Positions 41,817 to 63,972 of a DNA stretch of 64,000 nucleotides are shown one piece after another. Under the pieces are notes generated by a model. That model was given only the letters and a program-made list of their open reading frames with translations, made no database searches and had not been told where the DNA came from. Location of the stretch: the NCBI GenBank assembly GCA_034189385.1, contig JAXHVD010000019.1:1-64000 (forward strand). Direction: 5' to 3'. A program made the translations under genes and the position numbers. Within the stretch, counting starts at the first letter, position 1; each line of letters opens with the position of its first letter. The DNA comes from Thermodesulfobacteriota bacterium (GTDB lineage Bacteria; Desulfobacterota; Desulfobacteria; Desulfobacterales; C00003060).

Positions 41817-42131
41817 TCAACAGGCACAGGAACAGCTGCCACACGAATCTGGCCGTTGCATTGCTGAGGAAATGGAAAACCCAGAACCCATGGGCGATTC
41901 AACATAATCCACTTTTACTGGGTTTATCCGTTCAAACAACCCCTTTTCAATCACATAGGTAAGTCCCTCTACGTCAAATATGGCGTCTTCATCTCGTGAC
42001 TCATCCAGAGCCATTCCCAGTGCAGGTCCCGATCATCCGCCTCTGAGCATGATACGGATAGGTGATATCTCTTCTCTGTCTCTCAATGCCTCTTTGATCA
42101 TATCACTGGCTTTTTGTGTCACCTCAAACAT
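41817..42131 (-). CDS. HesB/IscA-like selenoprotein (Sec at codon 33)
   Basis: GAGGAGG RBS; MFEVTQKASDMIKEALRDREDISPIRIMLRGG-TGA(42035-42033)-SGPALGMALDE...SCGSCSC; hairpin TGGCTC-TGGAT-GAGTCA after the UGA. Confidence 0.9.
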
Positions 42132-53582: not shown

Positions 53583-54848
53583 ATGAAACATATGCGTATT
53601 TGTGTGATCATTTTTCTATTGACCTTCTCTTTAACAGCCCAAGGGGCGGCTCAAGAGGTTCTCACCTGGCCCGATTGTGTCAGGAAGGCACTGAAGCACC
53701 ATCCTGATGTGATCTCGGCAAAGGAGAAGGTGAGGCAGGCGGAAGCTGATAAGAAGATCACAAAAAGTGCCGTCCTGCCGCAGGTGACAAGCGAAGTGAG
53801 TGGCAAAAAGTCGAAGACGGAAAAACAGCCGGAGCAAGAAAGCTATGCCTATCGCATTAGTGGAAATCAGCTCCTCTTTGACGGCTTTAAGACTAGGTCT
53901 GATCTAAAGGCGGCAACGCAGATCACGTTGGCGCAACAGTACGATTATGCCGTGGTATCGTCAAATATCCGGTTAGCGTTGAGAAAGGCCTTTGCCTCTC
54001 TTCTAAGGGCCCAGGAACTCATCTCCTTGACCGAAGAGATTGCCGAGCGCAGGAAGCAGAATGTGGACTTGATTCAGCTCCGGTACGAGGCCGGCAGGGA
54101 GCACAGGGGGGCCTTGCTCACAGCCCAGGCAGATTTGGCTCAAGCTACCTTTGAAGTAGGCCGGGCAAAGAGGAATCTCTTCGTCGCCCAGCGGGAGTTG
54201 TCCAAGGAGCTCGGCCGAAAAGAGTTTGGTCCCATCACAGTGACGGGGTCCTTTGACATGGAGCCCGTTGCCGGCGACAGGCCTGACTTTGAATCCTTGG
54301 CAAAGGAGACGCCTTTTCTAAAAGAGCTTATAGCCAGAAAAGAGTCCGCCCGGTGGGGTGTGAAATCGGCAAAGGCCGAGTATCTTCCCCAGGTCTATCT
54401 AAATGCCGCTTTTGGGGAAACTGCCACAGACTGGCCTCCGGAAGAGGGCGAGTGGTCGGCCGGCCTCACCCTTTCTCTTCCTATATTTGAGGGGGGCAGC
54501 AGGCAGGCCCGGGTCTCCAAATCCAAATCTCAACTGAGGCAACTAGCAGCCGATGAAGAGAGTGGAAAGGACAGCGTTGTGCTGACATTGGAAAAGACCT
54601 GGAAGGCCTTGCAAGATGCTGCCGACTTTGTCTCAGTTCAGAAGAAGTTTTTAGATGCCGGCCGGGAGCGGGCCAAGATAGCCGGTGCCCAGTATTCCAC
54701 AGGGCTAGTGGCTTTTGACGATTGGATTATCATCGAAAACAATCTTGTCAGTGCCAAGAAGGCGTATCTTGACGCCCAGGCAGATCTGCTCGTAGCCGAG
54801 GCGAACTGGTATCAAGCCAAAGGAGGCACACTGGAAGATGTTCAATAA
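53583..54848 (+). CDS. TolC-family outer-membrane protein
   Basis: Signal peptide, QLLFDGF and LSLPIFEGG repeats, helical body. Confidence 0.92.
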   Translation: MKHMRICVIIFLLTFSLTAQGAAQEVLTWPDCVRKALKHHPDVISAKEKVRQAEADKKITKSAVLPQVTSEVSGKKSKTEKQPEQESYAYRISGNQLLFDGFKTRSDLKAATQITLAQQYDYAVVSSNIRLALRKAFASLLRAQELISLTEEIAERRKQNVDLIQLRYEAGREHRGALLTAQADLAQATFEVGRAKRNLFVAQRELSKELGRKEFGPITVTGSFDMEPVAGDRPDFESLAKETPFLKELIARKESARWGVKSAKAEYLPQVYLNAAFGETATDWPPEEGEWSAGLTLSLPIFEGGSRQARVSKSKSQLRQLAADEESGKDSVVLTLEKTWKALQDAADFVSVQKKFLDAGRERAKIAGAQYSTGLVAFDDWIIIENNLVSAKKAYLDAQADLLVAEANWYQAKGGTLEDVQ

Positions 54849-55800
54849 TAGGACCATTGCCGTTGTTTCCATCCTGGCACTGTCGGTTGCAGCGATTGTT
54901 TCTTTCTACAAACTCAGAGGCAATACAAACGGCACCTCTTTCACCAAAGAGATCCGCCCTGTGGTGGGCGATATACAGATCGCGGTGATGACCACGGGCG
55001 TGGTGGAGCCCCAGAATCGTCTTGAGATCAAACCTTCCATCAACAGCCGGATTGAAGAGATCCTCGTTCAGGAAGGAGACCAGGTCACCAAGGGCCAGGT
55101 CCTTGCCTGGACGAGTTCCACGGAACGGGCGGCCCTTGTGGATGCCGCCCGGTCCCAGGGAGACAAGGCCCTGGCCTACTGGGAGCAGGTCTACAAGCAG
55201 ACGCCCATCATATCGCCCATTGACGGAGAAGTGATTGTCCGTTCCATTGAGCCCGGTCAAACGGTGACGACTAATGACACCGTATTGGTTTTGTCGGACC
55301 GGCTCATCGTGAGTGCGCAATTTGACGAAACCGATATCGGAAGGGTGAAGTTGGGAAAAGACGCAGTCATTGCCTTGGATGCTTACCCAAGTGTGAAGAT
55401 CAAAGGCACGGTCGATCACATTGCCTATGAATCCGAACTGGTCAACAACGTGACCATCTATGACGTGGATATTGTCCCTCGGCAAGTGCCCCCCTTTTTC
55501 CGCTCCGGCATGAGCGCAAACGTGGAGGTCTTGGAAAAAAGGCGACAAGGCGTGCTCCTCATCCCTGTGGAGGCGATTGAAAGGGAAGACGGAAAGGCCT
55601 TTGTGACAGTAAGAAGAAAGGGAGGAACCGGCCTTGAGCGGCAGGCCATCGAGATCGGCATCCTGAATGCAAAAAACGCAGAGGTTGTCTCTGGTTTGAC
55701 CGTTGAAGATGTACTCATTGTGCGTGATCAGGCCTATACCCCCCCAAAAAAAGCTAGTGGGACCAATCCCTTCTTGCCTTTTCGGGGAAAGAAGAAATGA
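54838..55800 (+). CDS. macA: Efflux periplasmic adaptor (MacA-like, very short hairpin)
   Basis: IEEILVQEGDQVTKGQVL, SPIDGEV, FDETDIGRV, RSGMSANV. Confidence 0.9.
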   Translation: MFNNRTIAVVSILALSVAAIVSFYKLRGNTNGTSFTKEIRPVVGDIQIAVMTTGVVEPQNRLEIKPSINSRIEEILVQEGDQVTKGQVLAWTSSTERAALVDAARSQGDKALAYWEQVYKQTPIISPIDGEVIVRSIEPGQTVTTNDTVLVLSDRLIVSAQFDETDIGRVKLGKDAVIALDAYPSVKIKGTVDHIAYESELVNNVTIYDVDIVPRQVPPFFRSGMSANVEVLEKRRQGVLLIPVEAIEREDGKAFVTVRRKGGTGLERQAIEIGILNAKNAEVVSGLTVEDVLIVRDQAYTPPKKASGTNPFLPFRGKKK

Positions 55801-57758
55801 TCAGGGTAAAGGGCCTCTCTAAAACCTATTGTGCCGGAAAGGTGCCGGTGCCGGCCTTGCAGGACGTCACCCTTGAGATCGGCCAAGGGGAGTTTGTGGC
55901 TGTCATGGGACCGTCGGGCTCAGGAAAGTCCACCCTGTTGCATATCCTGGGATGCTTGGACCGTCCTGACAGCGGCTCGTACAGCCTGCTCGGAACAGAG
56001 CTCTCCGAGTTGACGGACGACCAGTTGGCGCAGCTCAGAAATGGCCTGGTGGGTTTCGTCTTTCAACAGTTCCATCTCCTGCGGCGGGTAAGCGCCATTG
56101 AAAATACAGAGCTTCCCCTCATCTATGGGGGCAAGAAAGAGATCAGAAAAAGGGCCTACGAGAAGCTTCAGGCCGTGGGGCTGGCAAGACGGGAAGATCA
56201 CCGCCCAAACGAACTTTCAGGTGGCGAGCAGCAACGGGTGGCCATTGCCCGGGCCCTGGTGGCAGATCCCATGATCATTTTTGCAGACGAGCCCACAGGA
56301 AACCTGGATAGCAAGAGCGAAAAGGAGATCATAGACATTCTTAAGACACTAAACGGCCAGGGAAAGACCATTATCATGGTGACCCACGAACCAGGGGTGG
56401 CAAGGCACGCCCAGAGGGTCATTTCGATGCGGGACGGAAAGATCGTCTCTGATGAGGTCAAGAAGGCGCCTATGTCAACGCGCCTGAAGACCGATGGGTC
56501 AATATTAGATATCCTCTCCCACAAGCGCTTGTCTTTCGGCCGCATGGCCTTTGTGCAGCACTTGCGTCAGTCCATGCGGGCGATTCTGTCCAACAAGGTG
56601 CGCTCCTTTCTTTCCATGTTGGGTATCCTTTTTGGGGTTGCCGCTGTGATCGCCATGCTCGCCTTGGGAGAAGGGGCCAAGGCCTCCATCGAGGAAAAGC
56701 TAAAGAGCCTGGGGTCGAACCTCCTTTCTGTCCGGGCCGGTTCGGCCAAGGTGAGGGGGGTGGCTGCGGCAGCCGGATCGGTGACCCGATTTACCTTTGA
56801 TGACGTGGCGGCCGTCCGGGAGCTCACCCCCTTGGTGAGCAAGGTCAGCGCCTATTCCAGGGGAAGCGGACAGGTAGTCTATGAAAACGAGAATTGGAGC
56901 ACCAGCGTTCAGGGTGTGGGCTTTGATTACGGTACTATGCGCGCCAGTGTTCCCACTGTGGGGAGGTGGTTTACCCAAGAGGAGATCGGCAGGCGCGAGA
57001 AGGTGGCCATCTTGGGTCAAACGGTTGTGGAGCACCTCTTTGGCAACACCAGCCCCGTTGGCGAGACCGTTAAGATCAATCGCATCTATTTCAAGGTCAT
57101 CGGTATCGCCCCTGAGAAAGGCTTTGGCGGGCACCGCGATTTTGACGATACCGTCTATGTCCCTGTCACCACGGCCATGTACAGGGTCCTAGGCAAAGAC
57201 TATCTTGACGGCATCTATGCGGAGGTGGCAGACGCAGACTCTGTGGAAAAGGCCCAGGAAAAGATCAGCCAACTGATCAGGAAGCGTCACAGACTCCCCA
57301 AAGACGACGAGGACTCCTTCTATATCAGAGACATGAGCGAGATTCAGGAGATGTTAACAAGCACCACCGAGACCATGGGTCTCCTTTTGGGGTGCATTGC
57401 CGCCATCTCCCTTATCGTGGGGGGGATCGGGATCATGAACATTATGCTGGTCTCTGTGACAGAGCGCACAGGCGAAATTGGCCTCCGCAAGGCCGTGGGG
57501 GCCTCTGGGGCAGACATCATGTCCCAGTTCTTGATCGAATCGGTGGTCATGACTTTTAGTGGGGGGATCATCGGGATTCTCTTGGGCGGCGGCACGGCAT
57601 TTGTGATGTCTGCAGTCGTGGGATGGTCTACGGAGGTAACCCTTTTCAGTATTGTCTTGTCCACCACCTTTTCCATTGCCGTAGGGATCGGGTTTGGTCT
57701 TTGGCCGGCCCGCAAGGCCTCGGAGTTAAACCCCATAGAGGCATTGCGGTATGAATAG
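55797..57758 (+). CDS. macB: Fused MacB ABC ATPase-permease
   Basis: [17 protein letters not shown], then permease [13 protein letters not shown]...[17 protein letters not shown]...NPIEALRYE. Confidence 0.96.
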
Positions 57759-58200: not shown

Positions 58201-58651
58201 CATGAAATATATGCACAGGATATTTCTCATCCTAGAGGATCTCATTTTTTATTTTCCCTTTTGGGGTTGCCTATTAGAATTTCAATTCCTATTATATAGA
58301 TCTGTTTCATTGGAGACAGAAAACTTTGTTGCCCCTAGGCGACAACCCAAAAGACCAGGACCTGTGTTGGAACCTAAACCCCATTGAAGTTCTAAAGAAA
58401 AACGCAATCACAGCTAACGGCCACAGTTGGCCCACGTTTTCTATGCCAAATAAGGAAAAGGCGTGGCGTGGCGCGGGCGAAAAGTCCCGTGCTCCCCTTA
58501 GACTAAGTACAGGAAAGGAGGGTTTTGGACATATTCTTTATCTAGAATGCAGTTCACCTAAAAGGGTAAATAGCCCTTGGAAAACTTATATCCACAGTAC
58601 CCTCGGCTTCTGCAACACCAGGGGCAAGACAAGAGAAAGGAGAAAAGAGGA

Positions 58652-59203
58652 ATGCAAAGAATGTGTGTATTGGTGATGATGGCAATCATTCTGGCGGGCG
58701 CGGTGGGCTCCCCGCAGGTCGTGTTGTCGGCCTGACCCCCTGTGAGCACGTCTCCTCCGGCGGGGGGGACAGTGGCGCCCAGCGCACCTGCGCCTGTAAG
58801 AGAATTAGGCATAAGTGAACCGATGAGAGATTTTCTGGACAACATCGCCCCAGCGAGGGAGCCCGGCATCAGCCCCTTGGATCGCTTCAGAAACCGATTA
58901 TCGGGGGGCGTTTTAGGGAGCACTCCCACGTCGGCAGGGGCACTCTTTGGAAGACCACAGGGTGTTCTCGGCAGGGTATTAGGGGGCCTGAACGCCCGCA
59001 GCGGGCTGGAACGCTTCGGCCTTTTTGCATCAGGCACAAACGGCACGGCATCAGGGCCGCCCGTTTCCAACCAGGGCGGGTATGACACCAACAAAGAGCC
59101 TGGTTCCGCCTGTGGTGATACGGCACCACCTTCTGTCATCGGGGGCTGGGCCTTTGAGACTCCCGTTGCCACTCCGCCTGAACCTTGGTACCAGTTGCAG
59201 TAG
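58652..59203 (+). CDS. Secreted Pro/Gly/Ser-rich protein with an in-frame UGA at codon 28 (candidate selenoprotein, or pseudogene)
   Basis: Purine-rich RBS (AAGGAGAAAAGAGG); MQRMCVLVMMAIILAGAVGSPQVVLSA-TGA(58733-58735)-PPVSTSPP..., in frame with ORF 58742-59203; hairpin 58750-58770. Confidence 0.5.
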
Positions 59204-59897
59204 TCCACACATAAGCACCGGCTGCCCTCTGCAGGGCCCGGTGCCAGTGCTTTTTACCACAGATCCACTCCAACCCACAAAGGCTAATGCCTGACCGAAT
59301 TGGCCAGGCATTAGCTTCGCGCTCTTCCACAAAGTCCGTAGTATCTCTTATTCAAAAGGTTATTTGGCGGAAAGCTGCTGGCCAGGGCCATTCGCCCGCC
59401 AAAACCTCCCACAAGCTTCCCCTTTGGGCCATTTTTCCGCTTTTTTACCTCTTCTTGTCTCTTGATCAGTTTTCTCGGAACATATCAAAGGCTTGTAGGC
59501 TACTCTGGGCCTGCCAGACGCTATGGCTAATCAATTCTTGACGCCACCTTAATTAAATGGACATCGTCCTAACAGAATGCTAATAAAACGCCGCGTGGCC
59601 ATGAGGCCACGGGGTGTCTGGAAAAAACGGCGCTGCTTCGCAAGGTCGCCCCAAAAAGGCTTGTTCTGTCCAGTCTCTAACCTTCAAAGCGTTTCCGCTA
59701 TACGTGACAGTCGCCTACTACCTCCGCGTCACATACAGTCGCGTCACGGAATACGCTTTTGTAGTGCCGCCCATTCGTCAATGATGGAGACAGCGAGCCA
59801 CACCGGCCATGCCCCTCGTGAGGCCTTCATGATGAGGCCGTTCGATGTGCGAGTGATCGCTATCAGGTAAGGGCAACCATCTGAAAAAGGCCATTGT

Positions 59898-62135
59898 ATG
59901 GATCTCTATCTGTTGTCAATATTCGTACTGATCGGTCTTGCGATTTCCGACCTGATTGTCGGCGTTGTCAATGACGCCGTCAACTTCTTGAACTCTTCAA
60001 TAGGCTCCAAGGTAGCGCCACGCCATGTGATTATGATCATCGCAAGTCTGGGAATACTGGCAGGTGTGACCTTTTCCAGTGGAATGATGGAGGTGGCAAG
60101 AAAAGGGATATTCCATCCAAAGTTTTTCGTCATGCCGGAACTCATTACCATTTTTCTGGCCGTTATGCTTACGGACATCATCCTTCTCGATCTTTTTAAT
60201 ACTTATGGCCTGCCCACATCAACCACGGTATCCATCGTCTTCGAGCTCCTGGGCTCTGCCGTGGCCGTATCCTTGATTAAGATTTACACGGCGGGCCATA
60301 GCCTTGTTACACTGGTGAATTACATAAACACTGGGAAAGCCCTCGCCATTATTTCCGGAATTCTCCTGTCCATTGTGATTGCATTTTTTTCTGGAGTCAT
60401 TGTTCAGTTTATAGCTCGCGTTGCATTGACATTTGATTACAGAAAACGTCTTAAGCGTTTTGGGGGTATTTGGGGGGGCCTCTCCCTCGCAATCATAACC
60501 TATTTCATACTGATAAAGGGTGCCAAGGGGACATCATTTCTAACGCCCCAGTCCATTGCCTGGATCAGCACTCATGGGTTGATCATACTGTCACTTGGCT
60601 TTGGGGTTTTTGGTCTTATTTTTCAACTGTTGGCAATCTATACGAAGATCAACATCCTGAAACCGATTGTCTTGCTTGGAACCTTTTCCCTTGCAATGGC
60701 CTTTGCCGGCAATGATCTTGTAAATTTCATTGGTGTTCCCCTGGCCGGACTGAATGCCTATCATATCGCTTCAGCGTCTCATGAACCCCTGCGCGTGACC
60801 ATGGATGCCCTTCAAAAACCTATCCAGACGAATACATTGCTGCTGCTGATCGCCGGGGCAATCATGGTCGTCACCTTATGGGTGTCCAGGAAGTCCCGCA
60901 CAGTCACTCAAACAGAAATCAGTCTGGGCAGGCAGGAAGAAGGCCTGGAACGCTTTTCTTCTTCGGTACTTTCAAGAAGTATTGTACGTCTGTCTCATGC
61001 GGTCTTTTCCTTTTCAAATAGATTCATGCCCGTATCTTTGAGGAAGACAATCTCCCGCCGTTTGGACCCAGGTGCCTACAGTTGTGCACCTTCAATAGAC
61101 GGGAAAATGCCTTCTTTTGACCTGGTACGCGCTTCTGTAAACCTTATTGTTGCAAGTGCTGTCGTTTCCTTTGCAACATCATTGAAGCTTCCGCTTTCAA
61201 CAACGTACGTTACATTCATGGTGTCTATGGGAACATCGCTTTCGGACCAGGCGTGGGGAAGAGAAAGCGCTGTCTATAGAGTGACAGGGGTGCTTACGGT
61301 AATAGGTGGATGGTTTCTGACAGCACTTGTGGCGTTTTCAGTCTCCCTTGTTTTTGCATTTGCCATATATTACTTTAAACTCCTGGCCGTTTTAGGCTTA
61401 CTGGTGCTTTTGATTTCTGCTGTAGTCCACAGCTACCGTCTTCATTTCAGAAGGGAAAAAGAGAGCCGTGCGATCGAAGCCTTCAGCCTAAAGGACATCA
61501 GTGATTCCCACGCTGCAATCAACGCTTCTTTTGAGCAGACCGGGTGCTTTCTAAAGGAGATCAGCGATAGTCTGGGGCTGTCTTTTGAAGCCGCCTTTTC
61601 GGAGGACAGGCAAAGGCTGAGAGATACTACGACCTGGACAGATAGGATTCAGAAATGGGCTAACATTATTATCATAAATGTTTTTGAAACGCTTTTTCTT
61701 CTTCGTGATAATGCTGTGGACAGCACGCAGAAATACGCAAGAACCATAAGCTGCATACAGGGTATTGTGGCAAGCCACAGAGATATCATCAAGCGCTCTT
61801 ATGTGCATTTTGAAAACTGTCACGAAGGATTTAGTGATGTTCAGAAAGAAGAGCTAAGGCGGATCAAAACATATATTACCCGGCTGTTATGGAACACCTC
61901 CATCATGTTAAGGCAGAGGAAAAAAGTTGATTACGATTATGTTGCTAACCAACGTCGGAAATTGAACAACCTGGTTACTGAATTTGACAAGAACCAGATA
62001 AGACGGATACAACACGCTGAATCCAGGACCCGCTTGAACATTCTCTATTACGGATTGATGGAAAACTCCGTCAACATTGCCCAACACACACAGAATTTGC
62101 TTGATATCTTCAGGGAATCTTTCAGAGCGAAATAA
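59898..62135 (+). CDS. PiT/PHO4-family inorganic phosphate transporter, long form with a helical PhoU-like tail
   Basis: GVVNDAVNF, GLPTSTT, AGNDLVNFIG, LPLSTTYV. Confidence 0.92.
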   Translation: MDLYLLSIFVLIGLAISDLIVGVVNDAVNFLNSSIGSKVAPRHVIMIIASLGILAGVTFSSGMMEVARKGIFHPKFFVMPELITIFLAVMLTDIILLDLFNTYGLPTSTTVSIVFELLGSAVAVSLIKIYTAGHSLVTLVNYINTGKALAIISGILLSIVIAFFSGVIVQFIARVALTFDYRKRLKRFGGIWGGLSLAIITYFILIKGAKGTSFLTPQSIAWISTHGLIILSLGFGVFGLIFQLLAIYTKINILKPIVLLGTFSLAMAFAGNDLVNFIGVPLAGLNAYHIASASHEPLRVTMDALQKPIQTNTLLLLIAGAIMVVTLWVSRKSRTVTQTEISLGRQEEGLERFSSSVLSRSIVRLSHAVFSFSNRFMPVSLRKTISRRLDPGAYSCAPSIDGKMPSFDLVRASVNLIVASAVVSFATSLKLPLSTTYVTFMVSMGTSLSDQAWGRESAVYRVTGVLTVIGGWFLTALVAFSVSLVFAFAIYYFKLLAVLGLLVLLISAVVHSYRLHFRREKESRAIEAFSLKDISDSHAAINASFEQTGCFLKEISDSLGLSFEAAFSEDRQRLRDTTTWTDRIQKWANIIIINVFETLFLLRDNAVDSTQKYARTISCIQGIVASHRDIIKRSYVHFENCHEGFSDVQKEELRRIKTYITRLLWNTSIMLRQRKKVDYDYVANQRRKLNNLVTEFDKNQIRRIQHAESRTRLNILYYGLMENSVNIAQHTQNLLDIFRESFRAK

Positions 62136-62178
62136 CTATTTGAAATGAAGGGATTTTTCTCGGCACGAGGAGGGGGTA

Positions 62179-62874
62179 ATGCGTATTCCATTTCTTTCGG
62201 GGTTTTCCATCTCGCCATTTGACGGTCTCCAGGAACATGCAGAGAAGGTCAAAGAGTGTGGATGGGCATTTCAGCAGGCCATAGAGTGCCATGCCGCAGA
62301 GAAATGCAAGATGTTTGACGAATACCGTCAGGAAGTCACTAGGCTGGAGAATGAAGCTGATGCTGTAAAACGCAGGATCCGTGGGCACTTACCAATGGGA
62401 ACAAGGCTCCCCGTGAGTCGATTTCAGGTGTTCATGTACTTGAAGGAACAGGACAAGGTCCTGGATTCTGTTGAAGAGGCCCTTAATTGGCTCTCCTATC
62501 GACGTACCCCACGCATCGGGAATAACGAAATAAAGGAGTCGTTGTTCCGTCTTGTTGATGCTGTGCTTGAACCCATTGAAGAGCTAAGTAGATTGGTGGC
62601 TGAGGCGAAGAAGTACTTTGACAGTTACTCTGAGAAACAGCGCAACATTGTGAAAGATATTATTCGCAATCTTCGAAAGAGGGAGCATGAGGCGGACATG
62701 GTTGAAGACGAATTGAAATACAAGGTCTTCAGTATGGAAACAGACCCAGTAGCCATATTTCATCTCGTCAAGCTTGCTGAAATCATCGGTGCTGTTGCTG
62801 ATCATGCAGAAAATACGGGAGATGTGATGAGGGGTATGATTGCACGGAAAGAAAAGACCTTTTTTGGTAAATAG
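62179..62874 (+). CDS. DUF47/TIGR00153 PiT accessory protein
   Basis: SPFDGLQEH, LENEADAVKRRIR, EQDKVLD, EHEAD, VADHAEN. Confidence 0.93.
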   Translation: MRIPFLSGFSISPFDGLQEHAEKVKECGWAFQQAIECHAAEKCKMFDEYRQEVTRLENEADAVKRRIRGHLPMGTRLPVSRFQVFMYLKEQDKVLDSVEEALNWLSYRRTPRIGNNEIKESLFRLVDAVLEPIEELSRLVAEAKKYFDSYSEKQRNIVKDIIRNLRKREHEADMVEDELKYKVFSMETDPVAIFHLVKLAEIIGAVADHAENTGDVMRGMIARKEKTFFGK

Positions 62875-63048
62875 ACAAGGGGGCTTTTTACGCCAGAAAA
62901 TACCCTGTCCTTCGCGCCAATATCAAAGTCCTCTTGAAGGCCTGTGCCCCTGTATTTGCACTGCAGTGTAAGATCAAGGCCCTTACGAAGGCCCTACCAG
63001 GAAGTGGGCACGGGCCCCCATCCAAGGACGTCTGTCAGATGACAGAAC

Positions 63049-63972
63049 CTAGGTAATGCCATGAATGAGGATAAAAGACAGAAGGCCCGTCGAAACTGGC
63101 GTCAAAACCCAACCTATCCCTATCTTGGTAAGCATGCGCCCGCTAACGGTGCGCACCCCCCCCACGAGACCTACCCCTACCACTGCCCCTACCACTGCCT
63201 GAGAAGAGGAGACCGGGACTCCGATTTGGGTGAAAACATGGAGGGTGCATCCAGTAGCCAGGACACAGATGAGGGCAGAAAAGGGATCCAGGGGGGCAAT
63301 TCCCTTGCCCACAGTCATCATGACCTTTTGGCTATAAGTCAGCACCCCGCTGGCAATGCTCAAGCCTCCAATGAGTGAAGCTGTCCCAGTCGATAAGATC
63401 CCTGCCCCTACGTAAACGCCAGTGACGTTGGCCACGTTATTACAGCCCAAGGCATAGGCGGCGTAGGCGCCTGTGGTGATGATCCCAAATGCATAGAGCA
63501 TATTCCTGTATGTCATACTCTTGATTGTCAAGGCTAGGGTGTAATCCAAGAGGCGATGAAGGAAATAGGCGACGACGATCCCCATGACTGGCGTCAAGAT
63601 CCAACACAGGACAATCCCCAATAGCTTAGAAAAATCGGGAGAACCCCCAAGAACGCTGGCACCAACGATAGCACCAATAATTCCCTGGGAAGCCGAAGCA
63701 GGAATGGCAAGGTAGGTAAGGACAATCATGATAACGGCTGTGGCCAAGGTGCAACAGAATGCGTGCATGGGTGAAAGGCGAGATACTTCGTTCAACGTGG
63801 TCATGCATTTTGGACCCTCAAGGAGAGAGCCCAGCAGAACGAAGGCTGCAGTCAACAAGATGGCTGTTCTATATTGTATCGTTCCTGTGGCAACCCCCGT
63901 GCCGAAGATGTTGGCAGAGTCATTTGCACCCAGGCTCCAGCCCATGGAAACACCGCTGATTATCTTCCACAT
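63049..63972 (-). CDS. PiT-family anion permease (short form)
   Basis: GANDSANIFG, PASASQ, GCNNVANVTG, GVPVSSSQAVVG. Confidence 0.92.
   Translation of the reverse strand: MWKIISGVSMGWSLGANDSANIFGTGVATGTIQYRTAILLTAAFVLLGSLLEGPKCMTTLNEVSRLSPMHAFCCTLATAVIMIVLTYLAIPASASQGIIGAIVGASVLGGSPDFSKLLGIVLCWILTPVMGIVVAYFLHRLLDYTLALTIKSMTYRNMLYAFGIITTGAYAAYALGCNNVANVTGVYVGAGILSTGTASLIGGLSIASGVLTYSQKVMMTVGKGIAPLDPFSALICVLATGCTLHVFTQIGVPVSSSQAVVGAVVGVGLVGGVRTVSGRMLTKIGIGWVLTPVSTGLLSFILIHGIT

Follow-up and report, generated by a model that had tools for sequence, protein, structure and literature searches.

The question raised by this locus is whether a UGA codon near the start of a small secreted-protein gene is read as selenocysteine (Sec) and, if so, what an exported protein of this kind would do. 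The window, that is, the whole stretch of 64,000 nucleotides analysed here, is the first 64 kb of contig C11 in a 4.13-Mb genome that is 90% complete. A ribosome-binding site and an ATG at 58652 open a frame whose codon 28 is TGA and which stays open for 155 further codons; the first-pass annotation had given the same coordinates, and they are correct. Database gene calls cover codons 58-183 only (P0001). Among the six frames, the plus frame has the best ratio of synonymous to non-synonymous change. The features of the locus are as follows.

58637..58642, plus strand: Shine-Dalgarno-like AAGGAG, 9 nt 5' of ATG 58652; AGGAG is retained in the metagenome loci L029-L031.
58652..59203, plus strand: full gene, 183 codons including one in-frame UGA, from sequence, conservation and frame comparison.
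58652..58708, plus strand: predicted Sec-pathway signal peptide, residues 1-19, with putative cleavage at A-V-G/S-P, from the hydrophobic core, the small (-3,-1) residues and the family start A/S-P.
58733..58735, plus strand: UGA codon 28, probable selenocysteine, predicted mature residue 9; retained in L029, L030, L031 and the X2/X4 contigs.
58750..58770, plus strand: SECIS-like hairpin, 9 bp, GGC loop at +24, -13.0 kcal/mol, within all four constraints of the SECIS model.
58808..58984, plus strand: three predicted amphipathic segments (residues 53-65, 73-83 and 98-111), hydrophobic moment 0.5-0.65.
59111..59113, plus strand: Cys154, the sole Cys of the mature chain, invariant in 8/8 rows of alignment A4 and also in P0128 and P0130.
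59150..59200, plus strand: C-terminal tail ending PEPWYQLQ, common to a sheath-like family and other secreted proteins.
59201..59203, plus strand: true stop TAG, conserved in L029-L031.
59281..59317, plus strand: strong inverted repeat 3' of the gene, no U-tract, -23.3 kcal/mol, z -4.56.

The inverted repeat is likely a 3' end or stability element; its arms are retained in L029 with a different loop, and the X3 and X4 contigs jump from 59205/59209 straight to it; the spacer after the stop changes. Promoter and terminator scans gave nothing decisive, and Rfam returned two chance lncRNA matches only. A TolC-MacA-MacB type exporter operon lies upstream (53583-57758, plus strand), and two PiT-family phosphate transporters with a DUF47 gene lie downstream (59898-63972). 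The gene stands alone between them and the flanking DNA differs in L029, so the neighbours give no hint of function. A 216-aa antisense ORF (58558-59208), which is also open in L029 and L030, was taken as a mirror frame: it shows fewer synonymous changes (6/12 and 12/25, versus 11/9 and 17/24 in the plus frame) and no family match.

The organism had been thought to decode Sec, and the genome bears this out: selA, selB and selD are present above family cut-offs together with one tRNA-SeC (selC), and selD itself contains a TGA. The HesB-like gene of the window has its UGA at 42035 on the minus strand, in a G-G-U-S-G-P motif with a 6-bp hairpin. Candidate selenoproteins are very numerous in the genome: further in-frame UGAs, flanked on either side by coding signal and followed by hairpins at SECIS distance, were seen at G000:C63 30866 (minus), 20557 (plus), 14262 (plus) and 39146 (minus), G000 being this genome.

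The hairpin behind codon 28 consists of a stem at 58750-58758, a GGC loop at 58759-58761 and a stem at 58762-58770, with nine pairs including two G-U pairs, and its loop begins 23 nt downstream of the UGA. The bacterial SECIS model, as laid out in the accessible text of PMC13188914, has a loop of 3-9 nt with G in one of the first two places, a stem of 4-16 bp, a spacing of 16-37 nt and an energy of -7.5 kcal/mol or lower. With its 3-nt GGC loop, 9 bp, 23 nt and -13.0 kcal/mol, the candidate falls within each of these four limits as that text gives them, so that the earlier assignment of a 9-bp stem with a G-initiated loop to the bacterial SECIS model holds. For reference, 24 Sec codons were chosen from genome-wide UGA lists by the motifs of known families. 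Of these 24, 23 have a stem with a G-led loop starting at +19..+28, 8 have at least eight perfect pairs, and 4 have energies of -13.0 kcal/mol or lower; the candidate hairpin thus ranks among the best of this genome. As a background, other TGAs were screened for a perfect stem whose G-led loop lies at +19..+28 and whose energy is -13.0 kcal/mol or lower; such a stem follows 2 of 825 TGAs that end ordinary genes and 6 of 5000 random ones, the +19..+28 range having been fixed post hoc, after inspection of this genome's Sec genes. Recoding the segment synonymously with the peptide fixed reached -13.0 kcal/mol in 212 of 20000 trials and nine pairs in 27 of 20000, and with base shuffles the figures were 1.6% and 0.8%. 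The fold does not stand out from dinucleotide shuffles (z -0.16 and -0.59). In the unconstrained minimum-energy fold starting at the UGA, the C-run right after the UGA pairs with the G-run instead; the SECIS fold is favoured once the first 11 nt are omitted, and these 11 nt are expected to lie under ribosome cover. Genome-wide, ten UGAs follow a ribosome-binding site, an ATG and a signal-like stretch and have at least 60 open codons downstream; two of them have a hairpin of -7 kcal/mol or lower, the one at codon 28 being the stronger. Taken together with the conservation described below, these features make it likely that UGA 28 is read through as Sec.

Relatives of the locus come from marine and marine-sediment metagenomes, and the named homologues are labelled Thermodesulfobacteriota. 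From 441 pattern matches, a metagenome contig scan yielded the three loci L029, L030 and L031; at 82-92% protein identity, each of them still has the TGA, the 21-nt hairpin, the TAG and the tail. L030 and L031 are identical over the gene and are therefore counted as one lineage. Contigs, not reads, were also compared from four runs (X1-X4) of two studies, of which X1 may be the source of the window DNA. The X2 contig spans the UGA site with no change there; the X4 contig, about 89% identical, has four differences over 58704-58773, none in the UGA or the hairpin; and two X3 contigs and one X1 contig keep UGA bases 2 and 3, base 1 lying at the edge of the stretch compared. Codons 29-30 are variable (P-P, P-R, P-L and G-A). 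As to hairpin covariation, the hairpin is intact in the relatives, with no compensatory change in the DNA compared, and for neither L029 nor L030 does its lack of change reach significance (P 0.33 and 0.12). In two protein homologues the amino acids predict substitutions that would preserve pairing: C to U opposite G in P0004, and G to A opposite U in P0128.

At the protein level, seven matches (one of them the protein itself) were found among 657 candidates, and a 50% library search gave nine, of which four were kept and P0131-P0135 were dropped as repeat-driven (P0132-P0135 on inspection). The homologues, a small and lineage-restricted family, comprise 10 clusters and 15 sequences, of which 14 were inspected. 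None of these 14 begins upstream of codon 31, as would be expected of gene callers if a stop lay upstream; DNA was compared for close relatives only, and the stop in the homologues of 56-74% identity is judged from the gene calls. None of the 14 combines a signal peptide with Cys, Ser or Trp at codon 28. Since no Cys homologue was found, the usual Sec/Cys test yields nothing here. Of the alternatives foreseen for the aligned codon, conservation of the UGA was found in 3/3 loci and alternation with Cys was not.

Homologues at 56% identity, and two that are more distant, still have the frame, Cys154 and the tail. Over the gene, dN/dS is 0.33 against L029 and 0.56 against L030; it is 0.25-0.43 for codons 43-183 and 0.7-0.8 for the signal part. 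By these ratios, the frame downstream of the UGA is under purifying selection. The suggestion that the TGA arose from a TGY codon in a decaying gene is therefore not supported, given this constraint on codons 43-183 and the conservation of the UGA in relatives. In L030/L031, a 2-nt deletion in a TG-repeat stretch after the ATG puts the ATG out of frame and would abolish the full-length product, while the UGA, the hairpin and the downstream frame remain intact; the deletion suggests gene loss, slippage-type switching or a shared assembly error, and together with the dN/dS of 0.56 there it makes the gene appear dispensable. No convincing orthologue was found among 40 relatives by DNA (short matches outside the gene only), in 36 genus genomes by protein (best E 0.017), in 400 class genomes or two scans of the genome-contig collection, or, by profile search, in G013, an 89% complete genome. 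A 43-nt stretch upstream of the gene (58574-58616), without an Rfam match, has 81% matches in G003 and G005, where the orthologue was not found, and is possibly a regulatory site.

Where the chain is cut decides the place of Sec in the mature protein. The first-pass annotation had drawn a 27-aa signal peptide with Sec as possible first mature residue or lipid acceptor. The hydrophobic core extends to about residue 15, after which comes G-A-V-G/S-P-Q. The (-3,-1) residues at 19/20 are small in every variant (A-V-G in the window, A-V-A in L029, A-L-G in L030/L031 and V-L-G in X4), and the S-P that follows matches the A/S-P start of the family that shares the tail. At 27/28, L-S-A-U does fit the lipobox pattern; yet an earlier, signal peptidase I-type site is conserved, L029 has F-S-A there, with Phe at -3, and G-S-P-Q separates the site from the hydrophobic core. 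Phe at -3 suits signal peptidase I poorly, and a lipobox so far from the core and behind Pro-Gln is unusual. The (-3,-1) pattern thus favours 19/20 over 27/28, and Sec as first mature residue or lipid acceptor becomes the less likely reading. With cleavage at 19/20, Sec would more probably be residue 9 of a mature chain of 164 residues. The idea that the UGA replaces the Ser of an A/S-P-P-V start was abandoned, codons 29-30 being variable.

Gly, Pro, Ser and Ala make up 49% of the mature chain, which is rich in them outside the amphipathic segments. An AlphaFold2 model from an 8-row alignment has a mean pLDDT of 49, with helices at 56-65 and 75-83 and no strands; the chain is predicted to be mostly disordered. 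Pfam and NCBIfam gave no hit at E up to 10.

When the read-through frame was compared by tblastn with its own genome, its last residues were matched in other genes. A motif scan and a tail profile placed the tail at the end of ten frames at E of 1.4e-4 or lower (next match E 0.53), namely six paralogues of 287-307 residues, two shorter secreted proteins, one short relic and the candidate gene. Nine of the ten, the candidate included, have a signal-like N-terminus, the tenth being the short relic. In a profile-profile comparison, the candidate tail aligned with the sheath-like family over 30 columns (E 2.4e-5, probability 76%). Among 37 genus genomes the tail DNA pattern matches this genome only, and a looser pattern matches three places in G013. 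In one short secreted relative (C2:7237), the family core is matched and the tail is different. Short tail or core relatives were seen at G000:C2 stop 104604 (minus), C6 stop 4122 (minus), C2 stop 7237 (minus) and C20 stop 48220 (plus); some have part of the sheath-like core, some the tail and some both, and one is a 28-codon tail relic without a signal peptide. Together they suggest that the tail is portable. A frameshift at 59185-59186 had been invoked to extend the frame to 59294. In L029-L031 the TAG at 59201 and the preceding tail are both kept and the DNA diverges with indels directly behind them, and complete homologues stop at the same PEPW tail. Because the tail is shared across frames of the genome and the TAG is conserved, 59201 is taken as the true end and the frameshift is unnecessary.

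The tail-sharing family, here called the parent family (A3; 157 homologues among 7994 candidates scored), has an A/S-P-P-V start and an invariant Cys. Its AlphaFold2 model is all-beta with about 12 strands at pLDDT 84.8, confidence being low beside the Cys and in the tail; by this model, with the strand count taken from the secondary-structure string, its members are predicted to consist of a signal peptide and 12 antiparallel strands. The family has no significant Pfam or NCBIfam match. Searches against PDB sequences, Foldseek PDB/BFVD and the ESM Atlas gave no usable match and no SH entry, and VIA-align gave none either (best Z 6.3), which does not by itself imply a new fold. Aligned by eye, the family is colinear with the archaeal SH sequences in Supplementary Data 1 and 3 of PMC11576556, and on this by-eye judgement we regard it as archaeal-sheath-like. 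The accessible passages of that paper describe an SH core of two six-stranded sheets and no SH homologue in Bacteria, and PMC10593813, in the part available, proposes that archaeal sheath rings are linked by a disulfide from a loop-tip Cys. The candidate protein lacks the SH beta core, and only its last 30 columns align to the parent family.

The parent-family profile found nothing in 400 other genomes of the order or in viral contigs, one match in 36 genus genomes and one in 400 genomes of the phylum (E 3.6e-10; L055, G624:C186). L055, from another order of the phylum, is a distant member with an N-run in the gene and a different tail. One sheath-like subunit lies in a locus headed by a CsgG-family gene (Pfam PF03783, E 7e-20) in both G000 and G013. 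These are the two of 37 genus genomes that have the parent family, and also the two with a close match to that CsgG; four other genus genomes match it weakly. G000 and G013 are related, so they do not count as independent evidence. The locus (G000:C18, L024 1181-6634; G013:C418, L064 710-5926) consists of the CsgG/HfaB-family gene, an unknown secreted protein, the sheath-like subunit and two more secreted proteins. The candidate gene is not part of it.

Based on these observations, we propose the following route. The DNA itself offers a single frame interrupted by one UGA, together with a SECIS-type hairpin and, in the genome, a full set of Sec machinery genes. SelB would, with high probability, bind the hairpin so that Sec is inserted. 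Signal peptidase I would then probably cut after residue 19 and leave a disordered chain of 164 residues with Sec at position 9, one Cys and the tail. The PEPWYQLQ tail, common to six sheath-like subunits and a few unrelated secreted proteins, likely serves as a portable address to a CsgG-type export or assembly route. The selenol might then bond the invariant loop Cys of the sheath subunits or its own Cys154, or form a Se-Se dimer carrying two tails. A Se-S bond is harder to reduce than a disulfide; such a bond might staple or tether the polymer in sulfidic sediment, and the amphipathic segments might contact the membrane or the sheath. The exported Sec protein would thus be a disordered accessory of a sheath-like polymer, Se-S or Se-Se linked, a reading that we favour tentatively and with a slight lean toward doubt. 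The link between candidate and sheath rests on some 20-30 residues. That the bacterium builds an archaeal-type sheath through a curli-type pore and staples it with a dedicated, unstructured Sec protein, whose Se-S or Se-Se cross-links would withstand sulfide, is a doubtful extension.

Several other explanations account for part of these data. If the UGA were a true stop, there would be a 27-residue leader followed by re-initiation at GTG 58742, GTG 58772 or ATG 58823, which would yield a tail-bearing protein of the cytoplasm, or else weak read-through by a near-cognate tRNA. The distance from the UGA to the first GTG is 6 nt, every gene call in the databases begins downstream, and the downstream frame is kept in L030/L031 despite the out-of-frame ATG; however, none of the three start codons has a clear Shine-Dalgarno sequence, a hairpin with tuned codons sits at SECIS distance, the stop is UGA in every DNA compared, and tail-bearing frames other than the short relic begin with a signal-like N-terminus, so that we consider this quite improbable. 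A lineage-wide pseudogene, in which a Ser or Trp codon became TGA once (TCA or TGG to TGA is one change) and the hairpin merely reflects Pro/Gly codons, would suit the low-complexity body, the fold z near zero and the frameshift of L030/L031. It would leave unexplained the frame, Cys154 and tail of the 56%-identity homologues, the dN/dS of the downstream part and the lack of an intact sense-codon version among the 14, and it is accordingly judged highly improbable.

The remaining two alternatives accept Sec and differ in what it does. Cleavage at L-S-A/U would give a free N-terminal Sec or, after lipidation by Lgt, a seleno-lipoprotein. The S-A is unchanged in L029-L031 and the X4 contig, and the U-P-P-V of the window resembles the family start S-P-P-V; yet the pair of prolines that follows U varies, cleavage in the tail-sharing family falls at A/S-P rather than at a lipobox, and the conserved 19/20 site, the Phe of L029 and the intervening G-S-P-Q all argue for the upstream cut, which makes this reading improbable. 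The protein could also be a real secreted selenoprotein in which Sec28 and Cys154 form a redox or soft-metal pair, acting in thiol-disulfide exchange with cysteines of the sheath or trapping metal at the cell surface, not a permanent cross-link. This view shares all the Sec evidence of the cross-linking model, accounts for a flexible chain that has a single Sec and a single invariant Cys, and agrees with the predominance of redox proteins among bacterial selenoproteins in the accessible part of PMC13188914. It is nevertheless unlikely in our view, as there is no CxxU/UxxC motif and no fold, and the neighbours of Sec vary in a way unlike a catalytic site.

Compared with known bacterial selenoproteins, the candidate is alike in its UGA, its hairpin geometry and energy and the selA/B/C/D set, and unlike in having no Cys homologue, no redox motif and predicted disorder. 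None of the 119 families in Table 1 of PMC13188914, as that table is available, matches by name or motif. A close parallel is with SaoC and the exported Sao selenoproteins (10.1101/2022.07.06.499078, accessible text), which are likewise small, exported, from anaerobes and with a Sec hidden by annotation. The Sec of these proteins lines up with Cys of CC/CU motifs, and those among them that are lipoproteins retain an ordinary lipobox Cys, whereas the candidate Sec would lie near the mature N-terminus with no Cys counterpart. Exported or new selenoproteins have been discovered via Cys homologues, as described in the available parts of 10.1101/2022.07.06.499078 and PMC1088965.

Like archaeal SH/MspA of Methanospirillum, Methanolinea, Methanothrix and ANME-1 (PMC6242892, PMC10593813 and PMC11576556, each in its accessible part), the parent family has a signal peptide and 12 predicted antiparallel strands, occurs in many copies per genome, and shows a loop Cys as well as motifs colinear by eye; the candidate is without the beta core and has only the last 20-30 residues of the parent family. 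The PEPW string is absent from the supplementary files of PMC11576556 examined, and the passages available do not mention selenium. Curli (type VIII secretion) and the HfaB holdfast anchor are brought to mind by the CsgG-family gene that heads the sheath-like locus of G000 and G013. The curli export signal is N-terminal, whereas the putative address of the candidate is C-terminal and its gene lies elsewhere in the genome. PEP-CTERM proteins resemble the candidate in bearing a short portable Pro-Glu-Pro tail on unrelated secreted proteins. In PEP-CTERM the PEP motif is followed by a transmembrane helix and basic residues; the candidate chain, in contrast, ends five residues after PEP, with no transmembrane helix, basic cluster or NCBIfam sorting match. 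The literature searched, with incomplete coverage of subscription journals and with bioRxiv supplements that may list more candidates, held nothing that dealt with this protein, a Sec lipobox or an SH homologue from Bacteria.

We therefore regard the gene as probably representing a new family of secreted selenoproteins, on the strength of sequence comparison, in which the mechanism of Sec decoding is itself textbook; what is novel is the family, its lack of a Cys counterpart and its putative link with a surface polymer. The bacterial selenoproteins catalogued so far are mostly enzymes or redox-motif proteins found via Cys homologues, and a disordered exported Sec protein with a surface-polymer address and no Cys counterpart would escape such searches. 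If the proposal is right, Sec would act as a structural cross-linker of the cell envelope, a role absent from the 119-family inventory as available. As a putative portable signal, the PEPWYQLQ tail is also relevant to the passage of sheath-like proteins through the outer membrane of a Gram-negative cell. The family is confined to a few uncultured lineages.

A last observation concerns the sheath-like proteins themselves. P0155, P0157 and P0158, members from different assemblies, share a C-T-Q-L-E that is absent from the full-length members listed, and their chains stop at one common position, 66-67 residues in. This would be accounted for if all three had a UGA in the loop that follows strand 2, and these proteins may thus carry Sec as well.
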